Origin: Promethearchaeota archaeon
GTDB taxonomy: Archaea > Asgardarchaeota > Lokiarchaeia > Sigyniarchaeales > SOKP01
Direction: 5' to 3'
Assembly: GCA_048941265.1 (NCBI GenBank)
Contig: JBHLNT010000093.1
Coordinates: 1-15,888, forward strand
DNA length: 15,888 bases
Shown here piece after piece: positions 1-15,591 of this stretch (positions are counted from its first letter, which is position 1; each line of letters starts with the position of its first letter). The notes beneath the pieces were generated by a model. The model saw nothing but the letters and a program-made list of their open reading frames with translations, was not told the DNA's origin and searched no databases. Both the position numbers and the translations under genes were made by a program.

Positions 1-921
1 CAAGAAATTGACAAATTAATAAATGAAAAGGATGAATCATGGAATAAACAAAAAAATTATCAAAAAATTATTACTGACTTAAAATCGGATCTTTCGATGG
101 AAAACTCTAAAAAGAATAATTATGAATCAAAAAAAATAATTTGTGCTGATCAAATAGAAACCTTATATGAAAGATCTAAAGATTATGGGACATTACCCCC
201 TATTACTGAAGATTTATCGGAAGAAGGATTACAATCTGATATTGCTCTTGCCAATAATAAGAAGAGAGCCTTAGAACCTGTGAACTTAAAAGCAATTGAA
301 CAATATGATACGGTAAAAGAGAGGTTTGATGAAATAGATATGCGTAGACAGACAATCCAACGCGAGAGAAAATCAATTTTAGATGCAATAGATAAGATAG
401 AACTAGAAAAGACAAGGACCTTCATGACTGCGTACCATGAGATTAACAGAGTTTTTAGTGCGGTGTTCCAGAAACTCTCTCCAGGGGGGTCAGCTAAAAT
501 GATTCTTGATAGACCTGATAAGCCGTTCGAAGGGGGTGTAAGTATCGAAGCACGTCCACGCGGTAAAAAGATCTCCTCGCTTGAGATTCTTAGTGGAGGT
601 GAAAAAACTCTAGTTGCGTTGTCATTTATTTTTGCCGTTCAAGAATTTTACCCAGCACCTTTTTATATAATGGATGAGATTGATGCAGCGCTCGATGGGC
701 CGAATGTTCATCGTGTGAGTACAGTTATCCAAGATTTCTCACATCAAGCACAATTTCTTGTAATAAGTCATAGAGAAGAGAATATTGTGAATGCTGACCG
801 CATTTATGGAGTTTCTATGCAGCAATCAGGCATTACAGATATTTTTAGTGTAGATCTAGAAGAAGAAGCAAAAAGACTTTTAGAATTAGAAGACATTCCA
901 CCCCAAGTGGAAGATAATTAA
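1..921 (+). CDS. smc: Chromosome segregation protein SMC, C-terminal part (5'-truncated by the window edge)
   Basis: Frame +1 is open from base 1 (QEIDKLINEKDESW...), so the ATG at 97 is internal. The protein has a coiled coil followed by the SMC head motifs: VNLKAIEQY, ARPRGKK, ABC signature LSGGEK, Walker B/D-loop YIMDEIDAALD and H-loop VISHR. It lies directly upstream of scpA and scpB. Confidence 0.97.
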   Translation, partial: QEIDKLINEKDESWNKQKNYQKIITDLKSDLSMENSKKNNYESKKIICADQIETLYERSKDYGTLPPITEDLSEEGLQSDIALANNKKRALEPVNLKAIEQYDTVKERFDEIDMRRQTIQRERKSILDAIDKIELEKTRTFMTAYHEINRVFSAVFQKLSPGGSAKMILDRPDKPFEGGVSIEARPRGKKISSLEILSGGEKTLVALSFIFAVQEFYPAPFYIMDEIDAALDGPNVHRVSTVIQDFSHQAQFLVISHREENIVNADRIYGVSMQQSGITDIFSVDLEEEAKRLLELEDIPPQVEDN

Positions 922-937
922 ATAAATTTCGAATAAT

Positions 938-943
938 GGTGAG
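938..943 (+). promoter_or_regulatory. Putative Shine-Dalgarno GGTGAG upstream of an ATT codon (949) in the scpA frame
   Basis: The GGTGA core typical of archaeal ribosome-binding sites ends 5 nt before ATT at 949, near the start of the open frame that begins after TGA 940-942. Confidence 0.5.
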
Positions 944-948
944 ATAGT

Positions 949-1947
949 ATTTCTGATAAAGAAGAACCAAATCAAGAAACAGATTTTAACAAATGGACAG
1001 TCAAAGATTTAAGAGAATTTTGTAATAAGAATAATATTAAAATTCCATCAAAAGCTAAAAAGAAAGATATAGTTGAGCTATTAAAAAGCGTAGTATCTAG
1101 TTCAGACTTCATAGATAGAACCAAAGAAGAAGAATTAGAAGAAGAATTAATTGCGGGTTTTGAGGAAGAGGAAGAGGAATCACCTCTTATGCATAGGGAA
1201 AAATCTGAAATAAAATTTTGGCAAAAACCGAAATATCGAGTATTATTAGATCTTGACCTCGCGAAAGATTCACAAGTTGCATTTTATGATTTATCAGCAT
1301 TAGTAGATAGGTTTTTTGATCATATGCTTCAAGAAGAGCTTATAAATTACAAAATCTCTGGAATAGCACTTAGGACAGCTGCAAATTTGCACCATTTCAA
1401 AATTTCTAGCATAATTCGTGAAGAAGAACAAATACAAAAGATGGAAGAACTCGAAAAATTAAGACAACGTCATTCAAGAGCAATTCCTAGAACTCTCCCT
1501 CAACCAATCAGTCCTAAAATGCAAATAGCAACAAAGGATGAATTATTTGAAGCTATGAGAGCTGCGATCATAGAAACGATGCAAAAAAAAGAAAAATTGA
1601 GAAGGAGAAGATTACGACAAGAAGAAGAAAAACATAAACGCCTACAAAGATTATCTCAAGCGAAATTGCCTAAAGAATTATTAAAACATATAAGTGGGAA
1701 GGAACAAACTGTTGAAGAATTACATGATAGTTGGTTTAATCGAATAAAGGCTACGATTAATATAAATAATAAAGATTCTAGTTTTTTTGATCTTTTAAAT
1801 ATTATAAAAGATGAGGAAGAAAGTTCTATTGGAAGAAAATTTGCGTTAGTTCGAATGTTTTTAGCTTTAATGTTCTTAAGCACAGGAAATAGATTAACGC
1901 TAGTCCAAGATGATGAATTTAAAGATATTTTAATAAATTTGAGATGA
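949..1947 (+). CDS. scpA: Kleisin ScpA with an N-terminal HeH/SAP-like extension (start uncertain; ORF track start is 1189)
   Basis: The N-terminal kleisin region (YDLSALVDRFFDHM...INYKISGIALRTAANLHHFK), middle motif (IATKDELFEAMRAAI) and C-terminal winged helix (LVRMFLALMFL...LTLVQDDEFKDILI) match archaeal ScpA, and the gene lies between smc and scpB. The frame is stop-free from 943 with protein-like content, but has no ATG/GTG/TTG before 1189. Confidence 0.88.
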   Translation: MSDKEEPNQETDFNKWTVKDLREFCNKNNIKIPSKAKKKDIVELLKSVVSSSDFIDRTKEEELEEELIAGFEEEEEESPLMHREKSEIKFWQKPKYRVLLDLDLAKDSQVAFYDLSALVDRFFDHMLQEELINYKISGIALRTAANLHHFKISSIIREEEQIQKMEELEKLRQRHSRAIPRTLPQPISPKMQIATKDELFEAMRAAIIETMQKKEKLRRRRLRQEEEKHKRLQRLSQAKLPKELLKHISGKEQTVEELHDSWFNRIKATININNKDSSFFDLLNIIKDEEESSIGRKFALVRMFLALMFLSTGNRLTLVQDDEFKDILINLR

Positions 1948-1982: not shown

Positions 1983-2741
1983 ATGGATAATTCTAATGAG
2001 GAAATTAACGATCATTCTGAAAAAGAAGATAATGGAATAGTAGATGATAATAATTTTAATGAAGAACAAAAAGATGATTCTGAAGTAAATATTGAAAATA
2101 CAACTGATATGCCAGATAATATAGAAAACAATGCGATTGCTATTCCAGAAGGTGATGAAACAGATGAGGAACTAATAATAAGACAAATGCGAGATTATCA
2201 TAAAAATTTAATTGAAGCCTCTCTTTATGTTGCCGGAAGTTCATTGAGCATAGAAGAATTAAATACAAAATTGGAAATCTCTAAGAAAGAAGTTGAAGAA
2301 TTAATTAATGAACTTGCCTTCGATTATTTAGAACGCTCAACAGCTCTTGTAATTAATAGAGTTGGAGATGAGAGCTATCAGATGAGTCTTAAGACAGAAT
2401 TTATCGAAAAAGTCTCAAAATTTGCGAAAGGAGGGGCAATTGCTGAAAGATATTTAAGAACATTGACGGTTATCGCATTAAAACAGCCAATTCTTAAATC
2501 TTTAGTTATAAAATTAAGAGGCGCTGGAGCTTATGAGCATGTTAAATATCTTCTTGACAATGAATTAATTTCTGCCGTTAAAAAAGGAAGATCTCAAGAA
2601 TTAACGACTACTGATAAATATGCAGAAATGTTTGGCTTACCAAAAAATAAAGAAGAAATGAAAAGACTTATGGTTTCCCAATTAGGGCTTGATAATATAT
2701 CTGATGATGATAATAAAGAAAATAATGAAAACAGCGAATAA
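1983..2741 (+). CDS. scpB: SMC-Scp complex subunit ScpB (kite) with acidic N- and C-terminal tails
   Basis: Typical ScpB motifs are present: IEASLYVAG, YQM, LRTLTVIALKQPI...IKLRG...HVKYLL and GRS...TTDKYAEMFGL. It is the third gene of the smc-scpA-scpB cluster. Confidence 0.95.
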   Translation: MDNSNEEINDHSEKEDNGIVDDNNFNEEQKDDSEVNIENTTDMPDNIENNAIAIPEGDETDEELIIRQMRDYHKNLIEASLYVAGSSLSIEELNTKLEISKKEVEELINELAFDYLERSTALVINRVGDESYQMSLKTEFIEKVSKFAKGGAIAERYLRTLTVIALKQPILKSLVIKLRGAGAYEHVKYLLDNELISAVKKGRSQELTTTDKYAEMFGLPKNKEEMKRLMVSQLGLDNISDDDNKENNENSE

Positions 2742-2754
2742 TTAATTCCAAAAT

Positions 2755-5511
2755 TTAAGATTTAAGAACATTTATCTGTTCTTCAATTGTTTTTTTCTTA
2801 TTCTGCAATTCCTTTAGATTTTCTTCTTCTAATTTCACTAATTCTGGTGGAGCTCGCGTAGAAAATGGTCCATCTAGTTTTTTTTCAACGTTTTGAATTT
2901 GTTCTATTAGTTTTGAAAGTTGCTCTAATAATCTCTCTCTTTCTATCTTGATATTGATAATCTCTACTAATGGAAGATATACAACAACCTCCTGATGTAT
3001 AATTCTAGCTGAATTTTTCGGTATATTAGATTCATTAAATTTTAATTTATTAGGATCAATATGAGATAATAACGTTATTGCTGGAGAAGCTTTTTTAATT
3101 AAATCTTTTTTATTTCCCGTTTGAATAATCAGTGGAATTTTTAATCCTGGTTTGATATTAAAATCTTTTCTCACGCGCCTTATATCATGGATTATGTTTT
3201 TAATTAACTCAAAATCTTGTTCGATTTCCTCATCGATAAAAGAATCGTTCACTTCTGGCCAATTAGCTACAATTAAAGCTGGACCTTTCTTAATTGAATC
3301 TGGCAAACTTTGCCACAATGCTTCAGTGAGGAAAGGTATTATTGGATGTAAAAGACGCAAACAATTTTCTAAAATATATAACAAAATAGCGATAGGTGTG
3401 TTTTTATCCTGTTCTTTATCATCGTATATCCTAATTTTTGAAACCTCAATATACCAATCACAAAAATCATCCCAGATAAATGAGCGAAGTGATCTTGCAG
3501 CGTTAAGATAATCATATTCTTCATAGAATCTATTAACATTCTTCAATACTTTAGTAAAAATTGAAACAATCCATTTATCCGATATCCCTAATTTATTTTT
3601 TGGATAATCAACTGAAAAGGGAATTATTTTCTGAGCTTTGTCAAGATTTCCTAAAATATAATTTGTAGACTGCCATATCTTATTACAAAAATTTTTAGAT
3701 GCTTTAAGAGCTCCCGGACTAAGATTTAAATCTTTACTAGGAATAATATTTGAAATAAAAGTGAATCTTAGCGGATCAGCCCCGTATTGAGCAATAATAT
3801 TTAGAGGGTCATATTGATCAATATTTTCCATAGATTTACTTATTTTTTGACCGTGTTCATCTCTAATAATTCCATGAAAATATACTTTATTATAAGGTGT
3901 TCTTTTGGTTAATTCAATTCCAAGCATCATTTCTCTAGCGACCCAAAAGAAAAGAATATCATATGCAGTTTCCCTTATATCATTAGGATAGTACCTTATG
4001 TAATCTTTATTCTCTAAATTTGGCCAACCTAAGGTAGCAAAAGGCCATAATCCGGAAGAAAACCAAGTATCTAACACATCCTCATCTTGCCTTAATTTAT
4101 TATCATTACATATTGGACAGATTTTTGGTGCTTCAAATTCACAAATTTGATGGCCATTTGAACAATACCATACTGGAATTTGATGCCCCCACCATAATTG
4201 ACGACTAATACACCAGTCACGAATATCCCCCATCCACTGAAAGAATCTCAATTCTTCACGTTCAGGTATCATCATTGTTAATCCGCTTTTAACAGCATCC
4301 ATAGCTTCTCTAGCTAAGTTTCTCGTTCTTACAAACCATTGAGTGGAAATTCTAGGTTCAATAATTGTATTACATCTCTGACAATGAGCTATAGCATGTA
4401 AATATGGTTCGATCTTAGAAAGAAGTCCTTCTTTTTTTAAATCTTTAACAATCTCCTCTCTACATTCAAATCTATCCATATTTGCATATTTCCCTGAATA
4501 CTTCGGTATCATTTTACCCGTTTTATCTATGACTGTGATAAACTCTAAACTATTTTTCAAGCCTATTTCATAATCATTTGGGTCATGAGCAGGTGTAATT
4601 TTTAGGGCTCCAGTACCGAATTCAGGATCTACATATGAATCTTCAAACACAGGAATTTCTCGCCCTAAAACGGGTAAAACAGCCATGTTCCCCTTATATT
4701 TTGAATATTTAGGATGTTTTGGAGCAATAGCTACTCCCGTGTCCCCTAATAATGTTTCTGGCCTAGTAGTTGCCAATTCTATAAATTCTTTTGCTCCTTC
4801 TGCCCATTTGCCAGAAGCCCATTCTGCTTTTGGTCCTTTCCAATCTTTACTTTTTATGGGATATTTTAGATACCATAGATGACTTTCATGCTCTTCAGTT
4901 TCAGCCTCTAAATTAGAAATAGCTGATTCACACCGTCCTGGGCACCAATTTACCATATATTTTCCTCTATAAATCAAATCTTTTTTGTATAGCTGTACAA
5001 AAGCGGTTCTTACTGCTAGACTGTAATCTTCATCCATCGTAAACCTTTCTCGTGTCCAATCACATGAAGATCCCATGCCTTTTGATTGCTCTCTAATAGT
5101 TGCTTGACAACGATCTTTCCAATTCCACACTTCTTCTATAAATTTTTTTCTCCCTATCTTTTTCCTATCTATCCCTTTCTTAGCTAATTCCCTCTCCACT
5201 ACATTTTGTGTAGCTATCCCTGCATGATCAGTTCCTGGAAGGAATAATGTTTCTTTTTGTTTCATACGCTCATATCGAGTCATAAGATCCTCGATTGTTA
5301 ATACAATTGCGTGACCAAAATGAAGAACTCCTGTTACATTTGGAGGAGGAAGTGTAATACAAAAACGTGGACTATTTTCATCCACTAATCCCAATTCTAA
5401 TTGTTTTTCAGGACGGAAATAACCTTGAGATTCCCACCATGTATATATTTTTTTTTCAATTTTTTTAGGATCATGTATAGGTGGTAAATTCTTAAAGTCT
5501 ATCATATTCAA
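2755..5511 (-). CDS. valS: Valine--tRNA ligase (bacterial/eukaryotic-type architecture)
   Basis: Motifs: PPPNVTGVLHFGH (HIGH motif, 5311-5322), GTDHAGIATQ, editing domain ATTRPET and FGTGALKITPAHD, DWCISRQLWWGHQIP, DVLDTWFSS, KISKS (KMSKS motif, 3832-3846), and a C-terminal coiled-coil arm. The ORF-track start is TTG 5511; ATG 5505 is an equally plausible start. Confidence 0.98.
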   Translation of the reverse strand: MNMIDFKNLPPIHDPKKIEKKIYTWWESQGYFRPEKQLELGLVDENSPRFCITLPPPNVTGVLHFGHAIVLTIEDLMTRYERMKQKETLFLPGTDHAGIATQNVVERELAKKGIDRKKIGRKKFIEEVWNWKDRCQATIREQSKGMGSSCDWTRERFTMDEDYSLAVRTAFVQLYKKDLIYRGKYMVNWCPGRCESAISNLEAETEEHESHLWYLKYPIKSKDWKGPKAEWASGKWAEGAKEFIELATTRPETLLGDTGVAIAPKHPKYSKYKGNMAVLPVLGREIPVFEDSYVDPEFGTGALKITPAHDPNDYEIGLKNSLEFITVIDKTGKMIPKYSGKYANMDRFECREEIVKDLKKEGLLSKIEPYLHAIAHCQRCNTIIEPRISTQWFVRTRNLAREAMDAVKSGLTMMIPEREELRFFQWMGDIRDWCISRQLWWGHQIPVWYCSNGHQICEFEAPKICPICNDNKLRQDEDVLDTWFSSGLWPFATLGWPNLENKDYIRYYPNDIRETAYDILFFWVAREMMLGIELTKRTPYNKVYFHGIIRDEHGQKISKSMENIDQYDPLNIIAQYGADPLRFTFISNIIPSKDLNLSPGALKASKNFCNKIWQSTNYILGNLDKAQKIIPFSVDYPKNKLGISDKWIVSIFTKVLKNVNRFYEEYDYLNAARSLRSFIWDDFCDWYIEVSKIRIYDDKEQDKNTPIAILLYILENCLRLLHPIIPFLTEALWQSLPDSIKKGPALIVANWPEVNDSFIDEEIEQDFELIKNIIHDIRRVRKDFNIKPGLKIPLIIQTGNKKDLIKKASPAITLLSHIDPNKLKFNESNIPKNSARIIHQEVVVYLPLVEIINIKIERERLLEQLSKLIEQIQNVEKKLDGPFSTRAPPELVKLEEENLKELQNKKKTIEEQINVLKS

Positions 5512-5623
5512 CCATAGTTAATGAAGCATATCTTTTAGATTTTATTTAATTAAATATAATAATCTTGTTCAAAATGATTCCAAAATTATTCTCATCTTTC
5601 AAATACCTAAAATACTATTAAAA

Positions 5624-5725
5624 TGGACCTGGCGGGAATTGAACCCGCGGCCTCTTGAATGCGAGTCAAGCTTAAGATTGATTTATGAGGCAGAAATCAA
5701 TGATCTTCCACTGATCTACAGGCCC
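5624..5725 (-). tRNA. tRNA-Ala(CGC) with a 30-nt intron (5672-5701) at position 25/26; CCA not encoded
   Basis: The minus strand reads GGGCCTG TA GATC AGTGGAA GATC [intron] G CTTGA CTCGCAT TCAAG AGGCC GCGGG TTCAATT CCCGC CAGGTCC A. All four stems pair. G3:U70 and A73 are the Ala identity elements, the anticodon CGC is at 5663-5661, and the mature length is 72 nt. Confidence 0.95.
5672..5701 (-). other. Archaeal tRNA intron with bulge-helix-bulge splice motif
   Basis: Intron sequence ATTGATTTCTGCCTCATAAATCAATCTTAA. The central 4-bp helix AAGA/UCUU is flanked by 3-nt bulges UC^A and AA^G, with an inner helix UUGAUUU/AAAUCAA. Cutting after the second nucleotide of each bulge restores a correct cloverleaf. 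Confidence 0.9.
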
Positions 5726-5845
5726 TTTTTTAAAAAGTATATTGGTAAGGGGATCGTATCTAATTTTTTTTTTTAATTTTTTAACTATGTGAAGTAAAAT
5801 CAAAAATTAAACTTTATTAAATTAATTAAAAAATACTAAAAATAA

Positions 5846-8224
5846 TTAATAACAAGTTCTGGCAATAATTTCATCTTGGGCTGTTTTAGAGAGTTCAGTA
5901 AAGAGAACAGTATATCCTGCAATTCTTACAACTAGGCCTCGATATGCATCTGGATTTTTCTGAGCTTCGTATAATGTATCTTTACCAATTACATTAAATT
6001 GTATATGAAATCCCCCATCTGCTTGAAAAAAGGTTCGAATTAGAGAAGGAAAAATTTCTAATTTTAATGTATTTGGATGAAATGCCAAAATTAGTGAATC
6101 TCCATTGGTAATTAATCCATGATCGAGTTTTTTAACTGAATTAAGAATTGCAGTTGGACCATTTTTATCCATACCATTGGTAGGACCAACTCCGTTAGAT
6201 AATTGGACTTTAGATTTTCTTCCATCAGCTGATGCACCAGTAAAAATACCGAATGCTAAATGAAATGCTGTTGATAAGATTCCTGGATTAAATTTCCCGC
6301 CTCTATAATTTTCATGTTTTAAGATTTCATCGCAATAAAAGTTTACAACATCAACAGCAATTTGATCAACATAATCATTATCATTTCCATATTTTGGAAC
6401 TTTATTTATGAAAATTTCTCTCCATTCGCTACCTTTTCTCCCTCGATACGAGCCCCTATAATTTTTCATAAGCATTTCGACCAATTCTTCTAATGAAAGG
6501 AGCTTATCTTCAAATACAATCTTTTTTATTACAGCGAGACTATCTGCCACTGTTGCTAAACCTATTAATTGAGCGCCTGTAAAATTATAAAGAGCTCCTC
6601 CCTGAGTTACATCAAGTCCCCTCTCTAAACAATTTTCTGTAGTTGCAGACAAGAATGGTTGAGGATTTAGTTCAGCAATAGCGGCATCCAGAACATCCAT
6701 AGTCAAAACCATATTTTCAATAAAATATCTTGTTTGATCTTTAAATGCATCCCAAAGATCTTCATATGAAGTAATTTTTTTATTGCTTTTAACTCCATAA
6801 TCTACCCTTGTTACCATATCAATTCCGTTCGTTAATGCTAACTCTAAACATTTTACAATATTGATTTGATTTGCATTAGTTGACCCAAAAGATTTATATG
6901 GATGTTGGGGTTCAACACACCCAATTGGTGCATATTCTCGAGCATCTTCAAGGGTAAATCCAATTTTTACCATACTTTTAACCATTATATCATCGTTGAA
7001 TAAAGCAACACTGGCTCCTGATTTTATGGATTCACCAACTTTATATAAAAAATCATCGGGAGTCATACTATGAATTCGAATAGAAAAAGTCGGTTGGACT
7101 GTCTTCAAGTGAGTATAAGCATCTAACATAATATATGATAATTCATTTGTTGCATCTTTTCCATTGCGATCAACACCACCTATTGTTAAATTTTCCGTAA
7201 TAGGAGGTCCCTCAGCAGCAACAATTCCTTTACTAAGAACATAATTCCATAATGTCGTGAGTTTAATATAAAAACATTCAACAAGGAATTGAGCTTCCTC
7301 TTCTGAAATTTTTCCCTCATTTCTATCTTTTAAGAAATATGGATATAAAACTTGATCTAAACGTCCAACGCTTACAGCAAAACCGCCATCTTCTAAACCA
7401 CATATTAATTGATTAAAATAAACCAGCTGTAATGCTTCTTTAAATGATTTTGGTGGGTTTTCAGAAATGTTGCCGCAAATTTCAGCAATTTCATGAAGCT
7501 CTAATTGACGTTTAGAATTTACTTCGATTTCTGCTTTATCCTTAGCTAATTGTGCAAATCTTTGGATAAATTTCTTTACCGCATTACAAATAATAATAAC
7601 AGATTGTAAAAATGTACTTTTTGAAATGTCATCAGAAAATTCAATAATCTTCCTTTCTGCTTTTTTTATTAACCCATTTATTCCATATTTTAAAAGAGGT
7701 TCATGACCCGGAAGAAAATGGCCAATACCATTAGTTAATTCTGTATCAACAAGAAATACTACTTTTTCCATAAGATCCCTTAAATCCGATCCTAATTTTT
7801 TCTGAAATCTCTCTTGAACCGTATCTTCTTCAAGTTTCCAGTAGGGAATAAGGTCTTCTGCAATATATGTTTTATCCTCGTTAGACAAAAAAAGTCGTTG
7901 AACTAAGCGACTATCATAAGTGTTATAATCTTGTTCGATTGTATCAATACGAACTTCAGGATATAAAGGCGTCCCGACCAACTTCGTGGTACGATTGCCA
8001 ATAATAAATTCGTCATCCCAAATTTTAATTGTCATATTTGTTAGCAAATATTCCATCGCTTTAGCAAATCGGATAATTGGAGGGTCTCCTTTTGATGCTT
8101 TATAGGATTCCATAAATAACTTTGCTCTTTCGATGCATATTTCATGTGATTGATTGACCACTCTTTCTTTCATCTTTGAAGTGCGTTCTTTATAGTTTGA
8201 ATATGAGATGCGTTCTAATTGCAT
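5846..8224 (-). CDS. Glycyl radical enzyme (PFL2/PflD/dehydratase-like superfamily), substrate unknown
   Basis: Cys loop IGCVEP (GCVEP at 6908-6922), Gly loop VRIAGY (RIAGY at 5912-5926), plus ICIERA, GRLDQVLYPY, NLTIGG, PKYGND, ASADGR, GPTAILNS and HIQFNV. It has a single-Cys loop, so it is not a canonical CC-type PFL. Confidence 0.93.
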   Translation of the reverse strand: MQLERISYSNYKERTSKMKERVVNQSHEICIERAKLFMESYKASKGDPPIIRFAKAMEYLLTNMTIKIWDDEFIIGNRTTKLVGTPLYPEVRIDTIEQDYNTYDSRLVQRLFLSNEDKTYIAEDLIPYWKLEEDTVQERFQKKLGSDLRDLMEKVVFLVDTELTNGIGHFLPGHEPLLKYGINGLIKKAERKIIEFSDDISKSTFLQSVIIICNAVKKFIQRFAQLAKDKAEIEVNSKRQLELHEIAEICGNISENPPKSFKEALQLVYFNQLICGLEDGGFAVSVGRLDQVLYPYFLKDRNEGKISEEEAQFLVECFYIKLTTLWNYVLSKGIVAAEGPPITENLTIGGVDRNGKDATNELSYIMLDAYTHLKTVQPTFSIRIHSMTPDDFLYKVGESIKSGASVALFNDDIMVKSMVKIGFTLEDAREYAPIGCVEPQHPYKSFGSTNANQINIVKCLELALTNGIDMVTRVDYGVKSNKKITSYEDLWDAFKDQTRYFIENMVLTMDVLDAAIAELNPQPFLSATTENCLERGLDVTQGGALYNFTGAQLIGLATVADSLAVIKKIVFEDKLLSLEELVEMLMKNYRGSYRGRKGSEWREIFINKVPKYGNDNDYVDQIAVDVVNFYCDEILKHENYRGGKFNPGILSTAFHLAFGIFTGASADGRKSKVQLSNGVGPTNGMDKNGPTAILNSVKKLDHGLITNGDSLILAFHPNTLKLEIFPSLIRTFFQADGGFHIQFNVIGKDTLYEAQKNPDAYRGLVVRIAGYTVLFTELSKTAQDEIIARTCY

Positions 8225-8395
8225 ATAAATCCCTATTAAAAATTTAATTTCTATAGAATTATAATCTGGAAATTTAAATAAAAATTTTCCATCAAAATTT
8301 ATATAAAAACTTCTTAATTTTTTTATTATTTAAATCAAACTTTATTGAGTTTATAAAATCACTGGTTATATTGACCTAAATTCTTTTGATATGAA

Positions 8396-9238
8396 TTAAT
8401 TCAATACCAAAACTTCTTTAATAGTACCTCTTTTAGTCGAATCGCTATTTATTGCTCTCTTAGCATTTAACAAAACAACTTTATAATCCTTATATAAATC
8501 TAAGATAAAATTTGAGTATGAATTACTCAACAAAATCTTACATCCATGCTCATCAAGAATTTTAAACGTATTATACAGCTTTATTTGGTCATCCTTCCCA
8601 AAATTATCTTTAGTATAGCTGGTAAAATTAGCAGAGTCAGAGATAGGAACATAAGGAGGATCAAAATAAATAAAATCATCTTTCTCCGCAAAATTTAAGC
8701 ATAATTCAAATGTACCTTCTAATATATTAACATTTTTCAAAACACTGCTGATTGCTTCGAGATTTTCTTCATCACAAAATCTAGGATTTTTATATCTGCC
8801 AAATGGCACATTAAATTGCCCTTTACTATTTACTCTATATAAACCATTATAGCAACATCTATTTAAATAAATAGTTCTAGAAGCTTTTTCAACATCAGAT
8901 AATTTGTTATATGATTTGGGAGTTCTATCTAATGCTCGAATTTGATAATAGTAATTTTTTTCATTTTTATGATTTTTTAGTAATTGTATCAATTCTTTTA
9001 CATTATTTTTTATAACTTTATAACAATTTACTAATTCACTATTAATATCAATTAAAATTGCTTTTTCAGGCAATATATAGAAAAATAAAGCTCCTCCTCC
9101 TACAAAAGGTTCGATATACATGTTATAATTCTTAGGTAAATACTTTATCATCTGTGAAATTAATTGCCTCTTCCCTCCAGCCCATTTTACAAAAGGATGG
9201 GGTCTGAGATGCTGGGAATTGAAGCTCTTTTCAGCCAT
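8396..9238 (-). CDS. dam: DNA adenine methyltransferase, Dam/DpnM (D12) family, probably GATC-specific
   Basis: Motifs: FVKWAGGKRQL, YIEPFVGGGA (SAM binding), DIN, YNGLYRVNSKGQFNVPFGRY (target recognition), YFDPPY (catalytic) and LSNS. Confidence 0.93.
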   Translation of the reverse strand: MAEKSFNSQHLRPHPFVKWAGGKRQLISQMIKYLPKNYNMYIEPFVGGGALFFYILPEKAILIDINSELVNCYKVIKNNVKELIQLLKNHKNEKNYYYQIRALDRTPKSYNKLSDVEKASRTIYLNRCCYNGLYRVNSKGQFNVPFGRYKNPRFCDEENLEAISSVLKNVNILEGTFELCLNFAEKDDFIYFDPPYVPISDSANFTSYTKDNFGKDDQIKLYNTFKILDEHGCKILLSNSYSNFILDLYKDYKVVLLNAKRAINSDSTKRGTIKEVLVLN

Positions 9239-9472
9239 ATGAAAAAAATTCCTTATAAAATCAATTTATTTAACTATAATATTATTCTTCCTTAAAATAT
9301 AATTTTGGTTACAACTTGCTATTTTTAAAAGAAATCAAATTCTCAGAAGCGAGTTTTTATTTTTGTCTAAAAAAAGTTAGAGCTTTTTAATAAAAAAAGG
9401 TGATAAAAGTTGTATTTTATATCATATCCTTTAAAATTTAAGTTTAAAAGAATTTAAGTAATATTTAATTCT

Positions 9473-9484
9473 AAAACTTAAAGT
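9473..9484 (+). promoter_or_regulatory. Possible BRE/TATA element for a leaderless moxR transcript
   Basis: AAAACTTAAAGT lies about 25-36 nt upstream of ATG 9509, and there is no SD before that ATG. The region is very AT-rich, so support is weak. Confidence 0.3.
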
Positions 9485-9508
9485 AAATATTAAATTCACT
9501 TAAGAAAA

Positions 9509-10471
9509 ATGGAAGATATCACGAGTAAAAGCTCTAGCGACCAAAAATTTAGAGAATTATTTAATAAACAATTGATTAAAGACGCTACGGAAGAAGAAAT
9601 TAAAATTGTTTTATCAGGACAATATGGCAAAGCTCTAGAATTATTGAGAGATGCTGAGGCAACAGGCTTATTTCCTGCTCTTGTAGGTCCACCAGGAGTT
9701 GGAAAGACAATTCTTTGCCGTTATTTTGCCAGTTTAAGAGCAAAAGAGAATAAAAATGCGAGTTTTTATTGGTTAACTATGGATGAATCAATTAGACCGG
9801 CAAATTTCATGGGTTCGTTTGACCCTGCTCTTACATTAAAGTATGGGTTCATATTGGAAGCATTTAGCCCTGGTCCATTGCTGAGAGCAATGTTAGAGGG
9901 TGGTACATTTTTAGCTAACGAGATTAATAGGGCAACAGAATATTCTCAAAACACATTATTAGAACCTTTAGAGGAGGCATCCATTGGTATACCCCATCTT
10001 GGAAGGATAAAAGCAGATCAAGAATTCTTTTTTATTTGTGCAATGAATCCGGAGGAATTATCGGGTACACACCGCTTATCTGAAGCATTAAAAGATAGAA
10101 TCAAGGTATGGATTAAATTAACATATCCTGAAAAATCAACTGAGTTGGATATAATCCGTATTAATCTACCGGAGCATTTCATGGTTGAAGAATCTGAACT
10201 TGAACTAATATATTCAATTATTAATGAAACAAGAAAAAATAAAATTGATATAGAAGTACCAGCATCAATTAGAGCTGGTATAGCAATTGCTAAACTTTTA
10301 GGTAGGAAAAGGTTTCTTGAAGAAAAGGGAGATATTAAGGACAAAAAAACCGTATATGAGTACTTATCTGATATATCTAAACATGTTTTATTAGGTAGTA
10401 TAAAACCTAAACCTGGTGTCAAAGTCGAGCACATTATCGACAATATTATCAATAAAACTTTAGGAGGATAG
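9509..10471 (+). CDS. MoxR-family AAA+ ATPase
   Basis: Walker A GPPGVGKT, the F.PGPL motif, Walker B variant FLANEINRA, QNTLLEPLEE, sensor I AMNP, LSEALKDR (arginine finger) and lid motif ASIR. It is followed directly by a VWA gene. Confidence 0.92.
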   Translation: MEDITSKSSSDQKFRELFNKQLIKDATEEEIKIVLSGQYGKALELLRDAEATGLFPALVGPPGVGKTILCRYFASLRAKENKNASFYWLTMDESIRPANFMGSFDPALTLKYGFILEAFSPGPLLRAMLEGGTFLANEINRATEYSQNTLLEPLEEASIGIPHLGRIKADQEFFFICAMNPEELSGTHRLSEALKDRIKVWIKLTYPEKSTELDIIRINLPEHFMVEESELELIYSIINETRKNKIDIEVPASIRAGIAIAKLLGRKRFLEEKGDIKDKKTVYEYLSDISKHVLLGSIKPKPGVKVEHIIDNIINKTLGG

Positions 10472-10495
10472 TCTTTTCGGAGGAAATATCTTATC

Positions 10496-12991
10496 ATGGG
10501 GGTATTCCCAGAAAATCCGTGTGAATATAGTGTAGAATTTATAAGAAGGATGAGAAATCATCCAGATATTGTTCAAATTCCCTCATCGCGGCAAGTTATG
10601 TCAATTCCCCGCTTAATAGTAGCTCGATACTATCGGAAGGGGGCAATAACTCCAAATGATTTCATAGAAGTTAGCACTGTAACATCTTATCCTGGAAATC
10701 AAGACATTGCCAAAAAAATAGCCTTTGAAATATTATTTCCTAATTACAAAAAAGATTTAGTTAAATCATTCTTTCAAGAAGATTTTAATACCGATAATAT
10801 TTTAGATGATGACTTTTTAACCCCCGAAGAAAAATCTTCCTTAGACGAATTTCAAGAATTAATAGATGAAATTGAAATGTCTAAATCCATAGATACGGAT
10901 TTTCTTCAGAAAATTGAGCAATTTATGGAAGAATTGAATCAAAAAAGGGAAGAAGAACCATTTAATTCAGCTTTAAATTTTTTTTCTGATGATGCGGAAT
11001 TATATAAAGAAAAAATATCATCTTTAGAGGAGTTACTTAACGAGGCTAAAAAGAGATTAGAACAAAAAATTAATTCTTTAGATCCTGATGACTTAAAAGC
11101 TGCTGAATCATTGAATTTAAACGATTTAATTCAAGAACAATCGAAGCGGGCATGGGAACAAATTACTAGTAAGGCGCTTAATAATCAAGACATTACACAG
11201 GATTTAAAAGAATTAATGAACTCAAATAATTTTGAAGATTTAATCCAAACATTAAAATATTTAAATGACACCAATGCAATTTCTAAAGATCAAATGCAGC
11301 AAATGAAAGATGAGCTACAAAATCAAATAAGTAACCTTGATCAATTATTTCAAGCTGCAAAAAATTTAGGAGAAACACCAAAATTCGATCCAGAAAAAGT
11401 ATTAAAACAATCCCTAGAACAATCTTCATTTGATCATAATTTTAATCTTTCAAATTCATTAGATCAATATTTTGGCACCAATTTAAGAGCTCAACTACTC
11501 GATAAATATGATCAACTCTCTCAAAATTCTCCTATGAATCTTTCACTCGAAAATTTGACTAAAAACGCGCTTGCTAATAAATCATGGAATAACTTAATAA
11601 ATAAGGCACTTGAAAACGCGATTAAAGACGCGATGAGCAAAAAAAGAAAATTTGAAGAATTTAAATCTTTAGCTCATCAATTACAGCAATTGGCAAATTC
11701 TTGTGCCAATATGCATTGCAGCCAAAAATTAGAACAAAATCTTCCCGATATAATTAAAAAATCCTTAGAATCATGTGAAAATGCAAATGAATTGAAAAAT
11801 ACTGTGGAATTTTTAAGAAACATTGGTTTAAATCCAGATAAAGAAGATATAAATCAAGTAGGAAAAAACATAGGAATGAGTGATGAAGAAATCTTTGAAT
11901 TAATAGAACCAGATTATCAATTATTAAAAAAATTGATAGATAAAAATCTCGGTGATTTTGAACGACTTAATAATTTAATGAATCAAATAAAGGACCAAAT
12001 CAATAAAGATCGAATGAAAGAATTGATCTCTAGCGCTTTGGCTTCTGAAAATCGGGACGCTTTAGGAGCTCTTGGTCATTTTAATTTGGAAGATGCCCTA
12101 AAAAGTGCTCAATTCATCGGAGGAGAAGAGGGCCAAAATAAATTAATACAATGCCTTGGGGCCGGTAGTGGTGAAAATTTACTGAAACAGTGGTTTACGC
12201 ACAGAAATAATTTATCTCCTACTGCAAAGGAAAAAGTGAAAGAACTTGCTAAAAAAATGCTTATTGACTTAGGGATTTATTATTCGCGAGCCCGGCTTGG
12301 AACAACAATTTCAGGACCAATCCCCATAAATGTTGTGCGACCATTTGCAATAGGGGATGATTTTGAAAATGTTGACCTCGAAGAGACAATAAATAACATT
12401 TTAGAAAAAGGAAAGAAAGTAGATCATATAAATTATGATGATTTTTTTGTATTTGAAACAGCTAAGGGACAGAGAAGTGCATGCTTTGAGCTCGACATTT
12501 CAGGAAGCATGACGGGAGATAAATTAGCATCAATGGCAATTTCTACAACAATGTTAGCGTATGGTTTACAGAAAGATGAACTTGGAATAACCTTCTTTGA
12601 ATCGGATACTCATGTATTAAAAGAATTAGGTGATGATAAAGATTTAGAAGAATTAGCTGATGAACTCTTGTCTGTGACTGCCAGAGGAGGTACGAGAGTT
12701 CAAAAAGCGCTCGAATGGGCAAGACGTCAGTTTAAAGAAAAATCAAGTGCTCGTGAAAAATTAAATGTACTTTTTACTGATGCTGAAATTTACGATCTCA
12801 AACAAGCAATGGAAGAATTAAGAATTTTTCGTTCCATGGGAGTTGATTTTGTTTTAGTTGTGCCGGAAACATCTTTTAATATTGAAGATGCAAAAAAAAT
12901 TGTAAAAATTGTCGGAGGACAGCTTCTCACTTTAAAAAACTGGGAAGAATTCCCTGATTTAATTTCTGAAATAATTAATTCAAAGTTTTAA
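10496..12991 (+). CDS. Large VWA-domain protein (MoxR partner): N-terminal AAA-lid-like domain, long helical middle, C-terminal VWA
   Basis: MIDAS motif DISGS (12494-12508), later GGT and LFTDAE, and a pre-VWA motif VRPFAIGDDFENVDLEET typical of MoxR-associated VWA proteins. It is 24 nt downstream of the ATPase, with GGAGG at 10479-10483. Confidence 0.9.
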   Translation: MGVFPENPCEYSVEFIRRMRNHPDIVQIPSSRQVMSIPRLIVARYYRKGAITPNDFIEVSTVTSYPGNQDIAKKIAFEILFPNYKKDLVKSFFQEDFNTDNILDDDFLTPEEKSSLDEFQELIDEIEMSKSIDTDFLQKIEQFMEELNQKREEEPFNSALNFFSDDAELYKEKISSLEELLNEAKKRLEQKINSLDPDDLKAAESLNLNDLIQEQSKRAWEQITSKALNNQDITQDLKELMNSNNFEDLIQTLKYLNDTNAISKDQMQQMKDELQNQISNLDQLFQAAKNLGETPKFDPEKVLKQSLEQSSFDHNFNLSNSLDQYFGTNLRAQLLDKYDQLSQNSPMNLSLENLTKNALANKSWNNLINKALENAIKDAMSKKRKFEEFKSLAHQLQQLANSCANMHCSQKLEQNLPDIIKKSLESCENANELKNTVEFLRNIGLNPDKEDINQVGKNIGMSDEEIFELIEPDYQLLKKLIDKNLGDFERLNNLMNQIKDQINKDRMKELISSALASENRDALGALGHFNLEDALKSAQFIGGEEGQNKLIQCLGAGSGENLLKQWFTHRNNLSPTAKEKVKELAKKMLIDLGIYYSRARLGTTISGPIPINVVRPFAIGDDFENVDLEETINNILEKGKKVDHINYDDFFVFETAKGQRSACFELDISGSMTGDKLASMAISTTMLAYGLQKDELGITFFESDTHVLKELGDDKDLEELADELLSVTARGGTRVQKALEWARRQFKEKSSAREKLNVLFTDAEIYDLKQAMEELRIFRSMGVDFVLVVPETSFNIEDAKKIVKIVGGQLLTLKNWEEFPDLISEIINSKF

Positions 12992-13227
12992 TTTTTTGGA
13001 TATAAAAGAGTGGAATAAATTGGTACTCTAAATATTTCATATTCATTATTATTATATTGAAGGTGTTTGTATCTTTTCATTAATTATATGTGCCAATAAT
13101 CCTTGGACTTATTGATCTTCAACAAAAAATTTATTTTTTTAAAAATTTTCTTAAATAACAGTATAAAACTCTGAATAATTTTTTAAACAAATTTCAAATT
13201 AAATTAATTCGAGATTTTAAAGATAAT

Positions 13228-15591
13228 ATGATTAAAATTTCTCTATCAGATGTACTTATAGAAAAATTTGGCGAAAAACTCTATTTAAAATCAAAAAGTT
13301 TTCCAAATAATAAAATAAATATTATTTGTCTAAAGGAAAATCCAATTAAGATCAATTCCATTATCTTAGACAATGATCGCGAATTCCATCTGATAATAGA
13401 TGAGAAAAAGGGTGAAATCTTCCACGATTGCCCTAATTTTTTAATTCATTCTGAAAGAGAAAAAAAAATTTGTATTCATTTCGTTAAGCTCTTACTCTTA
13501 ATTAAAAATCATATAGCGTTAGAAATAGCAAAGGATTTTGAAAGTTATTCACTAACTTCGGAAGATTTCGGGTCTAAAAAGAAAAGTAAAAACTTTTTGC
13601 TGTTAGCAAATAATTGTTTTGATACAAATAACTGCGTTGAGGGTTTAAGTTATCTTAATAAAGCTATAATAAATCAATATGAATGTGAGAACATTATTGA
13701 AAATTATTTAAATAGAGCAATAGAAAATAATCTCTATCTCGAATTTTTTGAATTTTTAAGGTCTGGGTTTGAAAATGATTTAAATGATTATATTTTACAA
13801 TTTGATCATTATATCGAAAAAGGTTTTAAGAATTTTCTTAATTCAATTAACGATTATTCCTTTTTTAACATACTAAGTGTAATCGAGGCTTTAGATTTTA
13901 TTTCTGAATATTATGACTTCACGTTTATTAATAAATTCTTTAAAAAATTTAAAAAATTAATTAATAGTTTAAACTTTAATGAAAAATATTTTTCGATTTA
14001 TTTTATTAAAAAGAATATGGAAAAATTCTCTGAGTTAAATCCATTATTTAAAGAGCTAATCCTACCAGAATCTCTCGAATCCGCTAAAGCTGAATTTTTA
14101 CGATATTTTCTTGATGAAATTGAAAATTTAGCGGTAATTGATAAATTAAAAATAATGAAGAAGCAATTTGAAACCATAAATATACCTAAAGAAAAATTCT
14201 ATAATGAATATAAAAAATACAAGGAAGAAATTAAAGAATTAGAGAAAAAGGTATATTTAAAAAAATTCTCCTTCCTGAAACTTTTAATGGAAAAATATAA
14301 TATTATAACCTCCCGAGGAGAATTTAGGAAAAAGAGAAATACTTATATTGTAAGACATGATGAAGAGAATCTTAATAATCCTGTTTATTCATATATTATT
14401 AAATCAATTGGATTTTATGGAATAAATGAATCTACTATAAAATCTACAGATATTGGAATTAATTACTTTATTATTAAACATTTATTTTCCGATGATCTTA
14501 GTTCACATCCAGATATATTTTACTACAAAAAACAATTTTGGGGCGAACTTGAAGATTATGAGATTAATCCGATAGATGGATTCTCTCTTTTGAGAGAAAA
14601 TATTAATTATAACTATGATATTGATCAACACTACTCAAATATTAATGATGTTATTATAATAGAATGGGATTTAGCAAACAAACCAAGACAAGGGAGTATA
14701 GTGAATGCTTATGGTTCTCAAATTTCAATCCCAGACCAACATAATCCATTATTTCACGATTTAAAACCTTTTGATTTATGTTACTGCCAGAAATCTCCAG
14801 TGAAAATCGAAGGGAACATAATAAAAACTGTCAATGTGATTACTAAATGTTCTTTTAAAGATGCCATAAATAGTGTTTCAAAAGGCATGAGTTTTGTTGA
14901 GGGATACTATCCTTTATCCCTTGTAAAGGCTGTATTAAATAAGGATATAAGCCCATTTAAAGCAAATGAAATCGCGGTTAATAATCCAAATAAGACTTTT
15001 ATTCCAAACTATAAACAATTTATTAAAAATTTTAGAGAATTTCTCTTTAATTTTATAAAAAAAGAAAAAGATTATATTTTTGAAGAATTAAAATCTGATC
15101 CTAAAAATAAAATAAATCAAATTTTAATGTTACTTAATTTACAAAATGAAACTCTGGGACTAGAACTATCATACTCAGAAATATTGGAAAAATTATTGGT
15201 TCAAAAAGTAAATCTAAATGTATTCAAATCAAAATTTTTAACTGAATTACATAAATATATAAAAGAAATCCTAAAAGAAAAAAAAATTGGCAGTACCAAA
15301 ATATTTGATTTGAAGCAACTCCGAAATACTCAATTTTTTAAATATTCTAATGAAATTATTAAAATTCGAACTGATGAATTTGAATCCACTGAAATTCTAC
15401 GTTCAAGAAATAATAAAAATGTAAGATATGATTTTTCAGAAATAATTAAAACATATTATGGTGGAAAGTTTTCAAATATCTTAAATATAGAAAATCCATT
15501 AAATGTAAAACAAGAAAAATTCACTAAATTTGCTGAATTGGCTTCACAATTAAAATTAAAATTGAATATTAAAGACTTAGAAATGTCTTAA
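13228..15591 (+). CDS. Hypothetical 787-aa protein with an N-terminal SWIM-like zinc finger
   Basis: Long ORF with HDCPNF...KKICIHFVKLL (HxC-x13-CxH, 13423-13479), preceded by beta-strand-like segments and followed by a hydrophobic helix as in SWIM domains. The remainder is not recognised. Confidence 0.7.
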   Translation: MIKISLSDVLIEKFGEKLYLKSKSFPNNKINIICLKENPIKINSIILDNDREFHLIIDEKKGEIFHDCPNFLIHSEREKKICIHFVKLLLLIKNHIALEIAKDFESYSLTSEDFGSKKKSKNFLLLANNCFDTNNCVEGLSYLNKAIINQYECENIIENYLNRAIENNLYLEFFEFLRSGFENDLNDYILQFDHYIEKGFKNFLNSINDYSFFNILSVIEALDFISEYYDFTFINKFFKKFKKLINSLNFNEKYFSIYFIKKNMEKFSELNPLFKELILPESLESAKAEFLRYFLDEIENLAVIDKLKIMKKQFETINIPKEKFYNEYKKYKEEIKELEKKVYLKKFSFLKLLMEKYNIITSRGEFRKKRNTYIVRHDEENLNNPVYSYIIKSIGFYGINESTIKSTDIGINYFIIKHLFSDDLSSHPDIFYYKKQFWGELEDYEINPIDGFSLLRENINYNYDIDQHYSNINDVIIIEWDLANKPRQGSIVNAYGSQISIPDQHNPLFHDLKPFDLCYCQKSPVKIEGNIIKTVNVITKCSFKDAINSVSKGMSFVEGYYPLSLVKAVLNKDISPFKANEIAVNNPNKTFIPNYKQFIKNFREFLFNFIKKEKDYIFEELKSDPKNKINQILMLLNLQNETLGLELSYSEILEKLLVQKVNLNVFKSKFLTELHKYIKEILKEKKIGSTKIFDLKQLRNTQFFKYSNEIIKIRTDEFESTEILRSRNNKNVRYDFSEIIKTYYGGKFSNILNIENPLNVKQEKFTKFAELASQLKLKLNIKDLEMS

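Follow-up and report, generated by a model that had tools for sequence, protein, structure and literature searches.

The scpA locus and its product

The 15,888-nucleotide (nt) window analyzed here is contig JBHLNT010000093.1 (C34 in our numbering) of a Promethearchaeota archaeon (GenBank assembly GCA_048941265.1; genome G000), whose genome comprises 5.0 Mb in 361 contigs with ~30% G+C. Its left end carries the gene order smc-scpA-scpB, in which a kleisin (ScpA) is encoded together with an SMC (structural maintenance of chromosomes) protein and a kite subunit (ScpB). In the terms used by the available part of the preprint 10.1101/2024.01.07.573240, with its neighboring ScpB-type kite this is an archaeal SMC operon of the condensin/cohesin-related type. 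The gene of interest is scpA, and in particular the ~80 codons that precede the start assigned to it. As listed in Table 1, this gene most likely begins at an ATT codon and appears to encode a small N-terminal domain and an acidic linker ahead of the kleisin proper.

A mechanical call of open reading frames (ORFs) returns scpA as 1189..1947 only, a product of 252 amino acids (aa), and the public collection holds the protein at that same length (P0011). The scpA frame (frame 1) is nevertheless free of stops from 943 to the stop at 1945-1947, a run of 334 codons, and is closed upstream by TAA at 934-936 and TGA at 940-942. No ATG, GTG or TTG occurs in frame 1 across 943-1188, the first being ATG 1189. 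The initial annotation had described the apparent gap between smc and scpA as stop-free in the scpA frame and as encoding a peptide (982-1086) followed by an acidic linker; this proved accurate, with the acidic stretch extending to ATG 1189. The base composition of the window predicts 0.081 stops per codon, at which rate 82 open codons would arise by chance with P ~0.001, and at least 82 codons free of both stops and starts ahead of the first canonical start are found in 11 of the 2918 ORFs of the genome.

Although smc, the extension and scpA all lie in frame 1 in the window, read-through or fusion from smc is ruled out by the three stops between smc and the extension and by the differing frames of the two genes in the related locus L002. 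Nor does the locus call for an alternative genetic code or a frameshift: the reading frame is uninterrupted, and relatives with an ATG are colinear with it. At least four other DNA contigs cover parts of the region: X1 and X2 match window positions 700-1309 and 700-1341 with 0 differences and may derive from the source sample; X3, from another study, spans 880-1028 with 1 difference, its site within the span not being given; and X4, a variant strain, has 13 differences over 805-1133, with none between 832 and 1028 among the rows listed. This agreement counts solely against a misassembly of the start site.

Table 1. Features of the window and related loci elsewhere in the same genome (contig:positions). 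Kleisin residues are numbered from ATT 949.
Feature	Position	Strand	Evidence or remark
smc, 3' end (C-terminal ATPase head half)	1..921	+	Pfam SMC_N 4.9e-31; translation; stop TAA 919-921
GGTGA Shine-Dalgarno-like site	938..942	+	pairs with 16S 3' end; its TGA is the in-frame stop closing the frame upstream
ATT, proposed scpA initiation codon	949..951	+	6 nt past GGTGA
Full-length scpA (kleisin)	949..1947	+	332 codons + stop; open frame, full-length relatives, A1 profile matches to solved ScpA N- and C-domains
HeH/SAP-like domain (likely)	985..1095	+	Ish1 on residues 13-47; AF2 pLDDT 88-91, residues 11-50; VIA Z 5.9 to 1zrj
Acidic linker, predicted disordered	1096..1188	+	net charge -12 over residues 51-80; pLDDT <50 at residues 63-85
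ATG picked as start by gene callers	1189..1191	+	unconserved
Kleisin N-terminal helical domain (SMC-neck-binding part in solved ScpA)	1210..1476	+	A1 vs 6ivh_A, E 2.5e-17; AF2 helices 94-176
Kleisin C-terminal winged-helix domain (SMC-head-binding part in solved ScpA)	1711..1944	+	A1 profile and Foldseek to 4i99_C
scpB (kite subunit)	1983..2741	+	Pfam SMC_ScpB 2e-30; TIGR00281 94.6 bits vs cut-off 89.2
Valyl-tRNA synthetase	2755-5511	-	
PFL-like glycyl-radical enzyme	5846-8224	-	
D12-class N6-adenine DNA methyltransferase	8396-9238	-	
MoxR-like AAA ATPase	9509-10471	+	
VWA protein	10496-12991	+	
787-aa protein	13228-15591	+	no Pfam match
RadA/Rad51	C334:50232-51542	-	Rad51 1.2e-93, HHH_5; N-terminal HeH/Rho_N-like copy, then acidic linker
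Topo VI-B-like, 1105-aa open frame	C98:5208-8522	-	Topo-VIb_trans 6.1e-29, GHKL ATPase; domain near C-terminus
401-aa protein, unassigned family	C175:1611-2813	+	C-terminal copy; Rho_N 27.6 bits, over cut-off
328-aa protein, unassigned family	C99:2926-3909	-	N-terminal copy
Example locus, GGTGA-led ATT/ATA-type start	C301:81139-81681	-	
Example locus, GGTGA-led ATT/ATA-type start	C355:13010-13690	-	
Example locus, GGTGA-led ATT/ATA-type start	C286:11090-12409	+	
Example locus, GGTGA-led ATT/ATA-type start	C274:9945-11009	-	
Example locus, GGTGA-led ATT/ATA-type start	C189:14070-14471	+	

Profile comparison and gene order identify the product of the gene flanked by smc and scpB as the kleisin of an SMC-ScpAB complex of the condensin-like kind in a Lokiarchaeia-type Asgard archaeon; the gene most likely has 332 codons rather than 252. 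The window protein alone yielded no SMC_ScpA match in Pfam, even at E ≤ 1, its 252-aa part matched no Pfam kleisin model at that threshold, and a search of the PDB sequences gave no match at E ≤ 10. A profile of alignment A1 (34 sequences, the window protein first and 33 relatives with identities down to 19%) matched ScpA C-domains bound to SMC heads in the PDB (4i99_C, 4e-9; 5xns_C, 1.1e-7) in addition to the N-terminal match given in Table 1, and Scc1 C-domain chains at 2.2e-4 to 3.7e-4 (1w1w_E, 3.7e-4). Among the A1 members, 12 of 34 match Pfam SMC_ScpA and 2 of 34 match Rad21_Rec8. The AlphaFold2 (AF2) model of the full kleisin has a mean predicted local distance difference test score (pLDDT) of 79.6, and its C-terminus superposes in Foldseek on 4i99_C with a TM-score of 0.84 on the target, a root-mean-square deviation (rmsd) of 2.3 and E 1.6e-3; the whole model gave no Foldseek match at E ≤ 0.001, the top rows being ScpA C-domains. 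The protein thus resembles solved ScpA (6ivh_A; 4i99_C, 5xns_C, 5h66_C) in its N-terminal helical domain, its C-terminal winged-helix domain and its place in the smc-scpA-scpB order, and differs from solved archaeal and bacterial ScpA in the ~80 extra residues at its N-terminus, which hold the HeH/SAP-like domain and the acidic linker. A second kleisin fragment is present in the genome (C338:4035-4415, minus strand), with 87% identity to residues 85-211 and one TGA and two TAA codons inside; possible readings are a pseudogene, strain variation or an error of binning. The remaining neighbors in the window, over 2755-15591, are ordinary genes.

The N-terminal domain and its distribution

A search with the 334-residue translation as query (8000 candidates scored) found 362 related proteins at E ≤ 0.001. 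Most of the 120 relatives listed are 310-350 aa in length and cover 93-100% of the query, and for 34 of these 120 a Pfam match to Ish1, HeH or Rho_N had been precomputed. Four of them (P0019, P0024, P0096 and P0106) reach 400-410 aa, and inspection of the N-termini of P0019 and P0024 revealed a tandem pair of domains. In 11 of the 120 the called protein is only 283-285 aa, and those inspected begin past the domain. The initial annotation had called the domain hidden and expected gene callers to truncate it, which is true of the window protein and, as far as inspected, of these 11 relatives and does not extend to most orthologs, which have been deposited at full length. In the window genome the domain is missed by gene callers because scpA seems to start at ATT and not ATG.

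Pairwise comparison of L001, L002 and L003, three loci that all lack a canonical start, gave ratios of nonsynonymous to synonymous substitution rates (dN/dS) of 0.128, 0.094 and 0.119 for the extension and 0.055-0.080 for the kleisin body. Together with the full-length relatives, these comparisons indicate that the extension is translated as an in-frame part of a genuine kleisin and is under purifying selection. The in-frame fusion to ScpA is conserved in related loci, recurring in 40 distinct ones, with the kleisin identity given by the A1 profile and Foldseek. No description of a HeH/SAP domain on an archaeal kleisin was found in the literature covered, though many orthologs are already deposited at full length; in the available part of the SMC preprint (10.1101/2024.01.07.573240) the terms ScpA, LEM, Ish1 and N-terminal are all absent.

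The extension was matched by Pfam Ish1 (PF10281) with 29.9 bits in the whole protein and 27.8 bits as the extension alone, over the cut-off of 26.6, the match being encoded by 985-1089. Among the 34 A1 members, Ish1 is found in 13, Rho_N in 11, HeH in 8 (E ≤ 0.01) and SAP in 5; Ish1, HeH, Rho_N and SAP are families that we take to belong to one Pfam clan. In alignment A2, which comprises 35 rows of the isolated 60-residue domain region, L21 and K38 are invariant. AF2 predicts the same fold for the domain in the full protein and in isolation (helix 18-27, an extended loop, helix 38-49, pLDDT ~90), with a pLDDT of 81.2 for the isolated-domain model. The VIA structure search, which is independent of Foldseek and covers 48,161 chains, placed SAP domains in its top rows (1zrj, Z 5.9; 1v66, 5.6; 2do1, 5.3; the SLX4 SAP domain 7bu5_B, 5.1), followed by Rho-N (1a62, 4.9), Tho1 (1h1j, 4.8, rmsd 1.9 over 43) and the emerin LEM domain (7ndy_G, 4.4), all values in the range of Z <8 that, as the tool warns, may mean merely a common arrangement. 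Foldseek with the domain model likewise returned the CDNF/MANF SAP-like domain, the Rho N-domain and SAP domains in its top rows. The best match of the A2 profile among PDB sequences, R2D2 at 0.0018, was judged probably spurious.

The extension is thus likely to form a helix-extended-loop-helix domain of the SAP/HeH/Rho_N type, as the initial annotation had suggested from a sequence pattern; the fold is predicted and graded as likely rather than proven because the Z values are modest. The predicted likeness to known SAP, HeH, LEM, Rho_N and Ish1 domains (1zrj, 1v66, 2do1, 1h1j, 1jjr, 1a62, 7ndy_G) lies in the length, the two helices joined by an extended loop, the conserved Leu in helix 1 and the basic loop and start of helix 2. 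The host differs, being a prokaryotic kleisin here and nuclear-envelope, scaffold-attachment or termination factors for the known SAP, HeH and Rho_N domains. Heh1/Src1/MAN1 presumably possess a transmembrane segment, which the window kleisin lacks. Within the acidic linker a short hydrophobic motif of the type Glu-Leu/Ile-Ile/Val-Ala-Gly/Glu-Phe is conserved (A1 columns 150-170) and is kept even in distant kleisins without the HeH domain; this motif may be a docking element.

The fusion was sought across the phylum. All genomes of the same family contain a match to the query, both in a first search (24/24) and in a phylum-wide sample (25/25, family f1). Of the latter, 19 encode the full HeH-kleisin, two have it cut by contig ends (G131, G136), three belong to genus g8, and one, G141, matched solely via the domain on another protein. 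In the kleisins of genus g8 (L063-L065), and in L101, the position of the HeH domain is taken by a zinc-finger-like motif of the Cys-Cys-His-Cys type, and those of order-level relatives bear an 80-200-residue basic tail rich in Lys, Ser and Thr, or a zinc-finger-like motif plus a Lys-rich tail; the sister-lineage kleisins with one or other of these modules also include L067, L096, L097, L099 and L100. All of these modules precede an acidic segment and then the kleisin. In the other families of the phylum, 36 of 36 matching genomes align only from query residue 74-91 on, with open frames of 225-308 aa, in keeping with the earlier expectation that other kleisins would lack the extension, as the other Asgard families sampled have short ones. 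The query matched nothing in 87 of the 151 phylum genomes, a figure that says nothing on the absence of a kleisin there. By this sampling the HeH-kleisin fusion is confined to one Lokiarchaeia-type family and is lineage-specific. The suggestion in the initial annotation that the fusion bears on the origin of the eukaryotic SMC complexes is not upheld: it occurs in one family, the sister lineages carry other modules, the other families lack the aligned region, and the finding has no bearing on the origin of cohesin or condensin.

Probable start codons of scpA and of other genes in the genome

The 3' end of the genome's own 16S rRNA (contig C222) reads ...GGATCACCTCCT, complementary to GGAGGTGA, and pairs with the GGTGA at 938..942. 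Of the 17 codons that separate the upstream stop from the domain, ATT 949 alone is near-cognate. The start region was compared over 40 distinct HeH-kleisin loci, de-duplicated on 150 nt. In 18 of these no ATG, GTG or TTG lies in frame between the upstream stop and the domain, and in each of the 18 an ATT, ATA or ATC stands 4-7 nt past a GGTG. Six loci have only a GTG that is itself part of the GGTG motif, and the other 16 have an ATG; counted among these ATG loci are L005 and L006, in which the ATG lies ten codons downstream of an ATT and is accompanied by an in-frame GTG. GGTG stands 4-7 nt before the candidate start in 33 of the 40 loci, and the remaining seven have an ATG. In L012 and L027, ATG occupies the exact position of the L001 ATT, with the same GGTGA and 6-nt spacing and the same Ser codon next, then Asp/Glu. 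In L008 and L059 a stop falls between GGTG and the ATA or ATC, so that the ATA or ATC is the first possible codon.

A maximum-likelihood protein tree separates an ATG-only group of 8 rows from a 32-row group in which ATT, ATA and ATC predominate and ATG reappears, the split being weakly supported; its well-supported branches force at least five changes of the no-canonical-start state. This is the pattern that interchangeable, functional start codons present, and scpA translation most likely starts at ATT 949. One of the loci, L028 (contig DATKTW010000114.1), is titled as a metagenome-assembled genome of Nanopelagicaceae (Actinomycetota), yet its HeH-kleisin nests among Promethearchaeota rows; the contig is probably mis-binned.

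The same arrangement was counted genome-wide in G000 as GGTGA, 6 nt, a codon and at least 120 open codons; the sequence upstream of such sites is non-coding in that frame because the TGA of the motif is itself in frame. The codon at this position is ATT in 20 cases, ATG in 16, ATA in 15, TTG in 7, and GTG and ATC in 2 each. With the shorter motif, GGTG plus 7 nt is followed by ATT at 23 and ATA at 21 of 119 sites, compared with a background in the same frame of 9 and 10 of 114 at GGTG plus 4 nt and of 3 and 0 of 82 at GGTG plus 10 nt. A coarser count, taken over every ORF of 150 codons or more, places GGTG 4-9 nt ahead of 2.35% of the pre-start ATT codons and 2.18% of the ATA codons, vs 0.5-1.4% for other common AT-rich codons. 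By rough arithmetic the excess of GGTG-led ATT and ATA amounts to ~45-50 sites, against 86 ATG, 28 TTG and 12 GTG first starts with the motif.

Of the 37 ATT, ATA or ATC cases, 22 were scanned against Pfam, the omitted ones being scpA, one case on C306 and 13 in which the first canonical start lies no more than 19 codons downstream. A Pfam match was found in 16 of the 22, and in 10 of these 16 the domain begins ahead of the first canonical start, the other six being uninformative. These include two Ras domains (residues 10-173 and 2-163, with the next canonical start at codons 38 and 26, respectively), adh_short (7-198, codon 30), a polyprenyl synthetase (38-300, codon 120) and a Roadblock domain (24-104, codon 65); in five further cases the domain also precedes the first canonical start. 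The two members of one paralog pair start at the same residue, one with ATT and its partner with TTG. A comparison of starts for the ATT-started Ras-like GTPase on C301 returned, as best matches in relatives, paralogs within frames of 300-600 aa. From these counts, ATT and ATA, and rarely ATC, 6 nt past GGTGA look like regular start codons in this genome.

No description of genome-wide ATT or ATA starts in Asgard archaea was found in the literature covered, the sole remark being that on an Asgard tubulin in PMC13394414, for which the available part of that article notes a "likely ... rare ATT start codon". As far as that part goes, the tubulin case resembles scpA in having an ATT suitably spaced from a ribosome-binding site and an annotation truncated under the ATG/GTG/TTG rule. 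It differs in that the ATT/ATA/ATC start of scpA is conserved over several genera and the usage apparently reaches dozens of genes, and so would not be "rare".

Proposed function of the extension and alternative explanations

A hidden Markov model of A2 run over this genome detected the domain in five ORFs, the kleisin and the four given in Table 1: RadA/Rad51, a Topo VI-B-like protein, and proteins of 401 and 328 aa. Domain-bearing frames of RadA-like length (420-444 aa) and of Topo VI-B-like length (1100-1156 aa) recur in relatives. The domain would contact nucleic acid, most likely double-stranded DNA, because of its fold family, the zinc-finger-like and Lys-rich substitutes in the sister lineages, the tandem duplication, and its other hosts RadA and Topo VI-B. 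We consider it reasonably probable that scpA encodes an ATT-started, full-length kleisin with a tethered nucleic-acid-binding domain. The GGTGA Shine-Dalgarno site, 6 nt upstream, would position ATT 949, which initiator tRNA would read as Met. The product would then consist of a basic domain of 40 residues, an acidic flexible linker of ~30 residues, the kleisin N-domain and the C-terminal winged helix, the N-domain holding the SMC neck and the winged helix the SMC head as in solved ScpA. The small domain would serve as a tethered nucleic-acid contact that gives the kleisin its own grip on the chromosome, and the acidic linker would possibly mask it until the complex is engaged.

In condensin (Brn1-Ycg1) and cohesin (Scc1-Scc3), loops of the kleisin contact DNA jointly with HEAT-repeat (HAWK) partners. 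The idea of a kleisin-borne DNA anchor besides the SMC heads is shared with these systems, the "safety belt" of Brn1-Ycg1 in particular; the arrangement proposed here differs in that an autonomous small domain would sit on a kite-type (ScpB) complex, and no homology is implied.

Several observations weigh against this reading. With regard to the fold, the other Pfam profiles fall under their cut-offs: HeH (PF12949) with 23.7 bits in the whole protein and 25.9 in the extension against 28.9, Rho_N (PF07498) with 18.3 and 20.4 against 24.9, and SAP (PF02037) with 13.8 and 18.6 against 23.9, over profile positions 1-20 only. No VIA Z value exceeds 5.9; every one of the 29 Foldseek rows for the domain has E >1, as is to be expected at a length of 45 residues; and the A2 profile reaches SAP proteins in the PDB at insignificant values (Ku70, 0.088; Tho1, 0.4; Rho, 0.82). 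With regard to the start, the case for ATT initiation is drawn from comparative anatomy; moreover, a GGTG at 4-9 nt ahead is seen for no more than 86 of 2422 first-ATG starts, and Shine-Dalgarno-led initiation is a minority mode in this genome. With regard to the function, in Rho the corresponding domain is, by analogy, part of an RNA-binding unit. The further adverse points are those on which the alternatives below depend.

The alternative that survives best, although we think it unlikely, is that the domain is translated and fused but acts as a protein-protein or regulatory module, docking on a chromatin protein, on the SMC head or on ScpB, or autoinhibiting together with the linker. SAP-like folds also bind proteins, as in the pairs CDNF-BiP and LEM-BAF, and the closest Foldseek superposition of the domain is the CDNF C-domain bound to BiP (9i5y_B, rmsd 1.5 over 38; VIA Z 5.2), the CDNF/MANF SAP-like domain being a binder of the BiP ATPase. 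The emerin LEM domain found by VIA binds the protein BAF, the net charge of the domain is a modest +4, and the conserved acidic linker with its hydrophobic motif resembles an interaction element. This alternative must nevertheless accommodate the DNA enzymes RadA and Topo VI-B as the domain's other hosts, the typical nucleic-acid binders (Lys-rich tails and zinc-finger-like motif) that stand in its place in sister kleisins, and the DNA-binding SAP domains that make up most of its top structural neighbors.

That the domain is translated from somewhere other than ATT 949, by ribosomes that terminate on smc and re-initiate without a defined codon or by another mechanism, seems quite improbable. 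The smc stop is 27 nt upstream, and in most loci of the ATT/ATA/ATC type scpA follows close behind smc; but the distance of ATT, ATA or ATC from GGTG is fixed while the frame and distance of the smc stop vary, the stop that follows GGTG in L059 and L008 precedes the ATC or ATA, and GGTGA-N6-ATT/ATA also precedes unrelated genes across the genome.

Slightly less probable again is that the 252-aa kleisin from ATG 1189 is the main product in this genome and the long form a minor one. In systems in which its strength has been assayed, ATT initiates weakly, and GAGG lies 11 nt upstream of ATG 1189, at a spacing (7-13 nt past GAGG) where ATG is over-represented, so that a short isoform may be made from this codon. 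ATG 1189 is not conserved, however: its column holds Ile in L002, where no canonical start comes before codon 127, within the kleisin N-domain, and Leu or Ile in most relatives, and in these very genomes the extension is under purifying selection judged to equal that on the body. Finally, that the extension is an untranslated chance open frame or a decaying 5' remnant, as the lack of a canonical start codon might suggest, is hardly credible given the P of ~0.001 for the open frame, the dN/dS of 0.09-0.13, the Ish1 match above cut-off and the conservation in 40 distinct loci.

Prokaryotic kleisins are generally seen as bridges between SMC neck and head that recruit the kite subunits. Against this background, a kleisin with a tethered nucleic-acid-binding module that is under selection, and that is swapped for other basic modules in sister lineages, would offer a testable handle on how archaeal SMC complexes hold DNA. 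A broader view, which we put forward as speculation and regard as doubtful when taken as a whole, is that the Lokiarchaeia-type kleisin is a DNA-binding subunit whose swappable N-terminal module (HeH/SAP-like domain, zinc finger or Lys-rich tail), borne on an acidic tether, anchors SMC-ScpAB to the chromosome; the module would be part of a small HeH "tag" system shared with RadA and Topo VI-B and would be a functional forerunner of eukaryotic SAP/LEM/HeH tethers and kleisin-borne DNA anchors, in a lineage that regularly initiates at AUU and AUA behind a Shine-Dalgarno sequence. Should ATT and ATA be routine starts after GGTGA, callers that accept only ATG, GTG and TTG would shorten proteins at the N-terminus: in this genome the Ras domain of two Ras-family GTPases would be deprived of its first 25-28 residues, the site of the P-loop, and the NAD-binding fold of a short-chain dehydrogenase would be cut at its beginning. 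Such clipping would distort domain inventories, structure predictions and expression constructs for archaea that are central to reasoning about eukaryote origins. The start-codon finding, which would explain why the domain was hidden, may thus be a more consequential result than the fusion itself.

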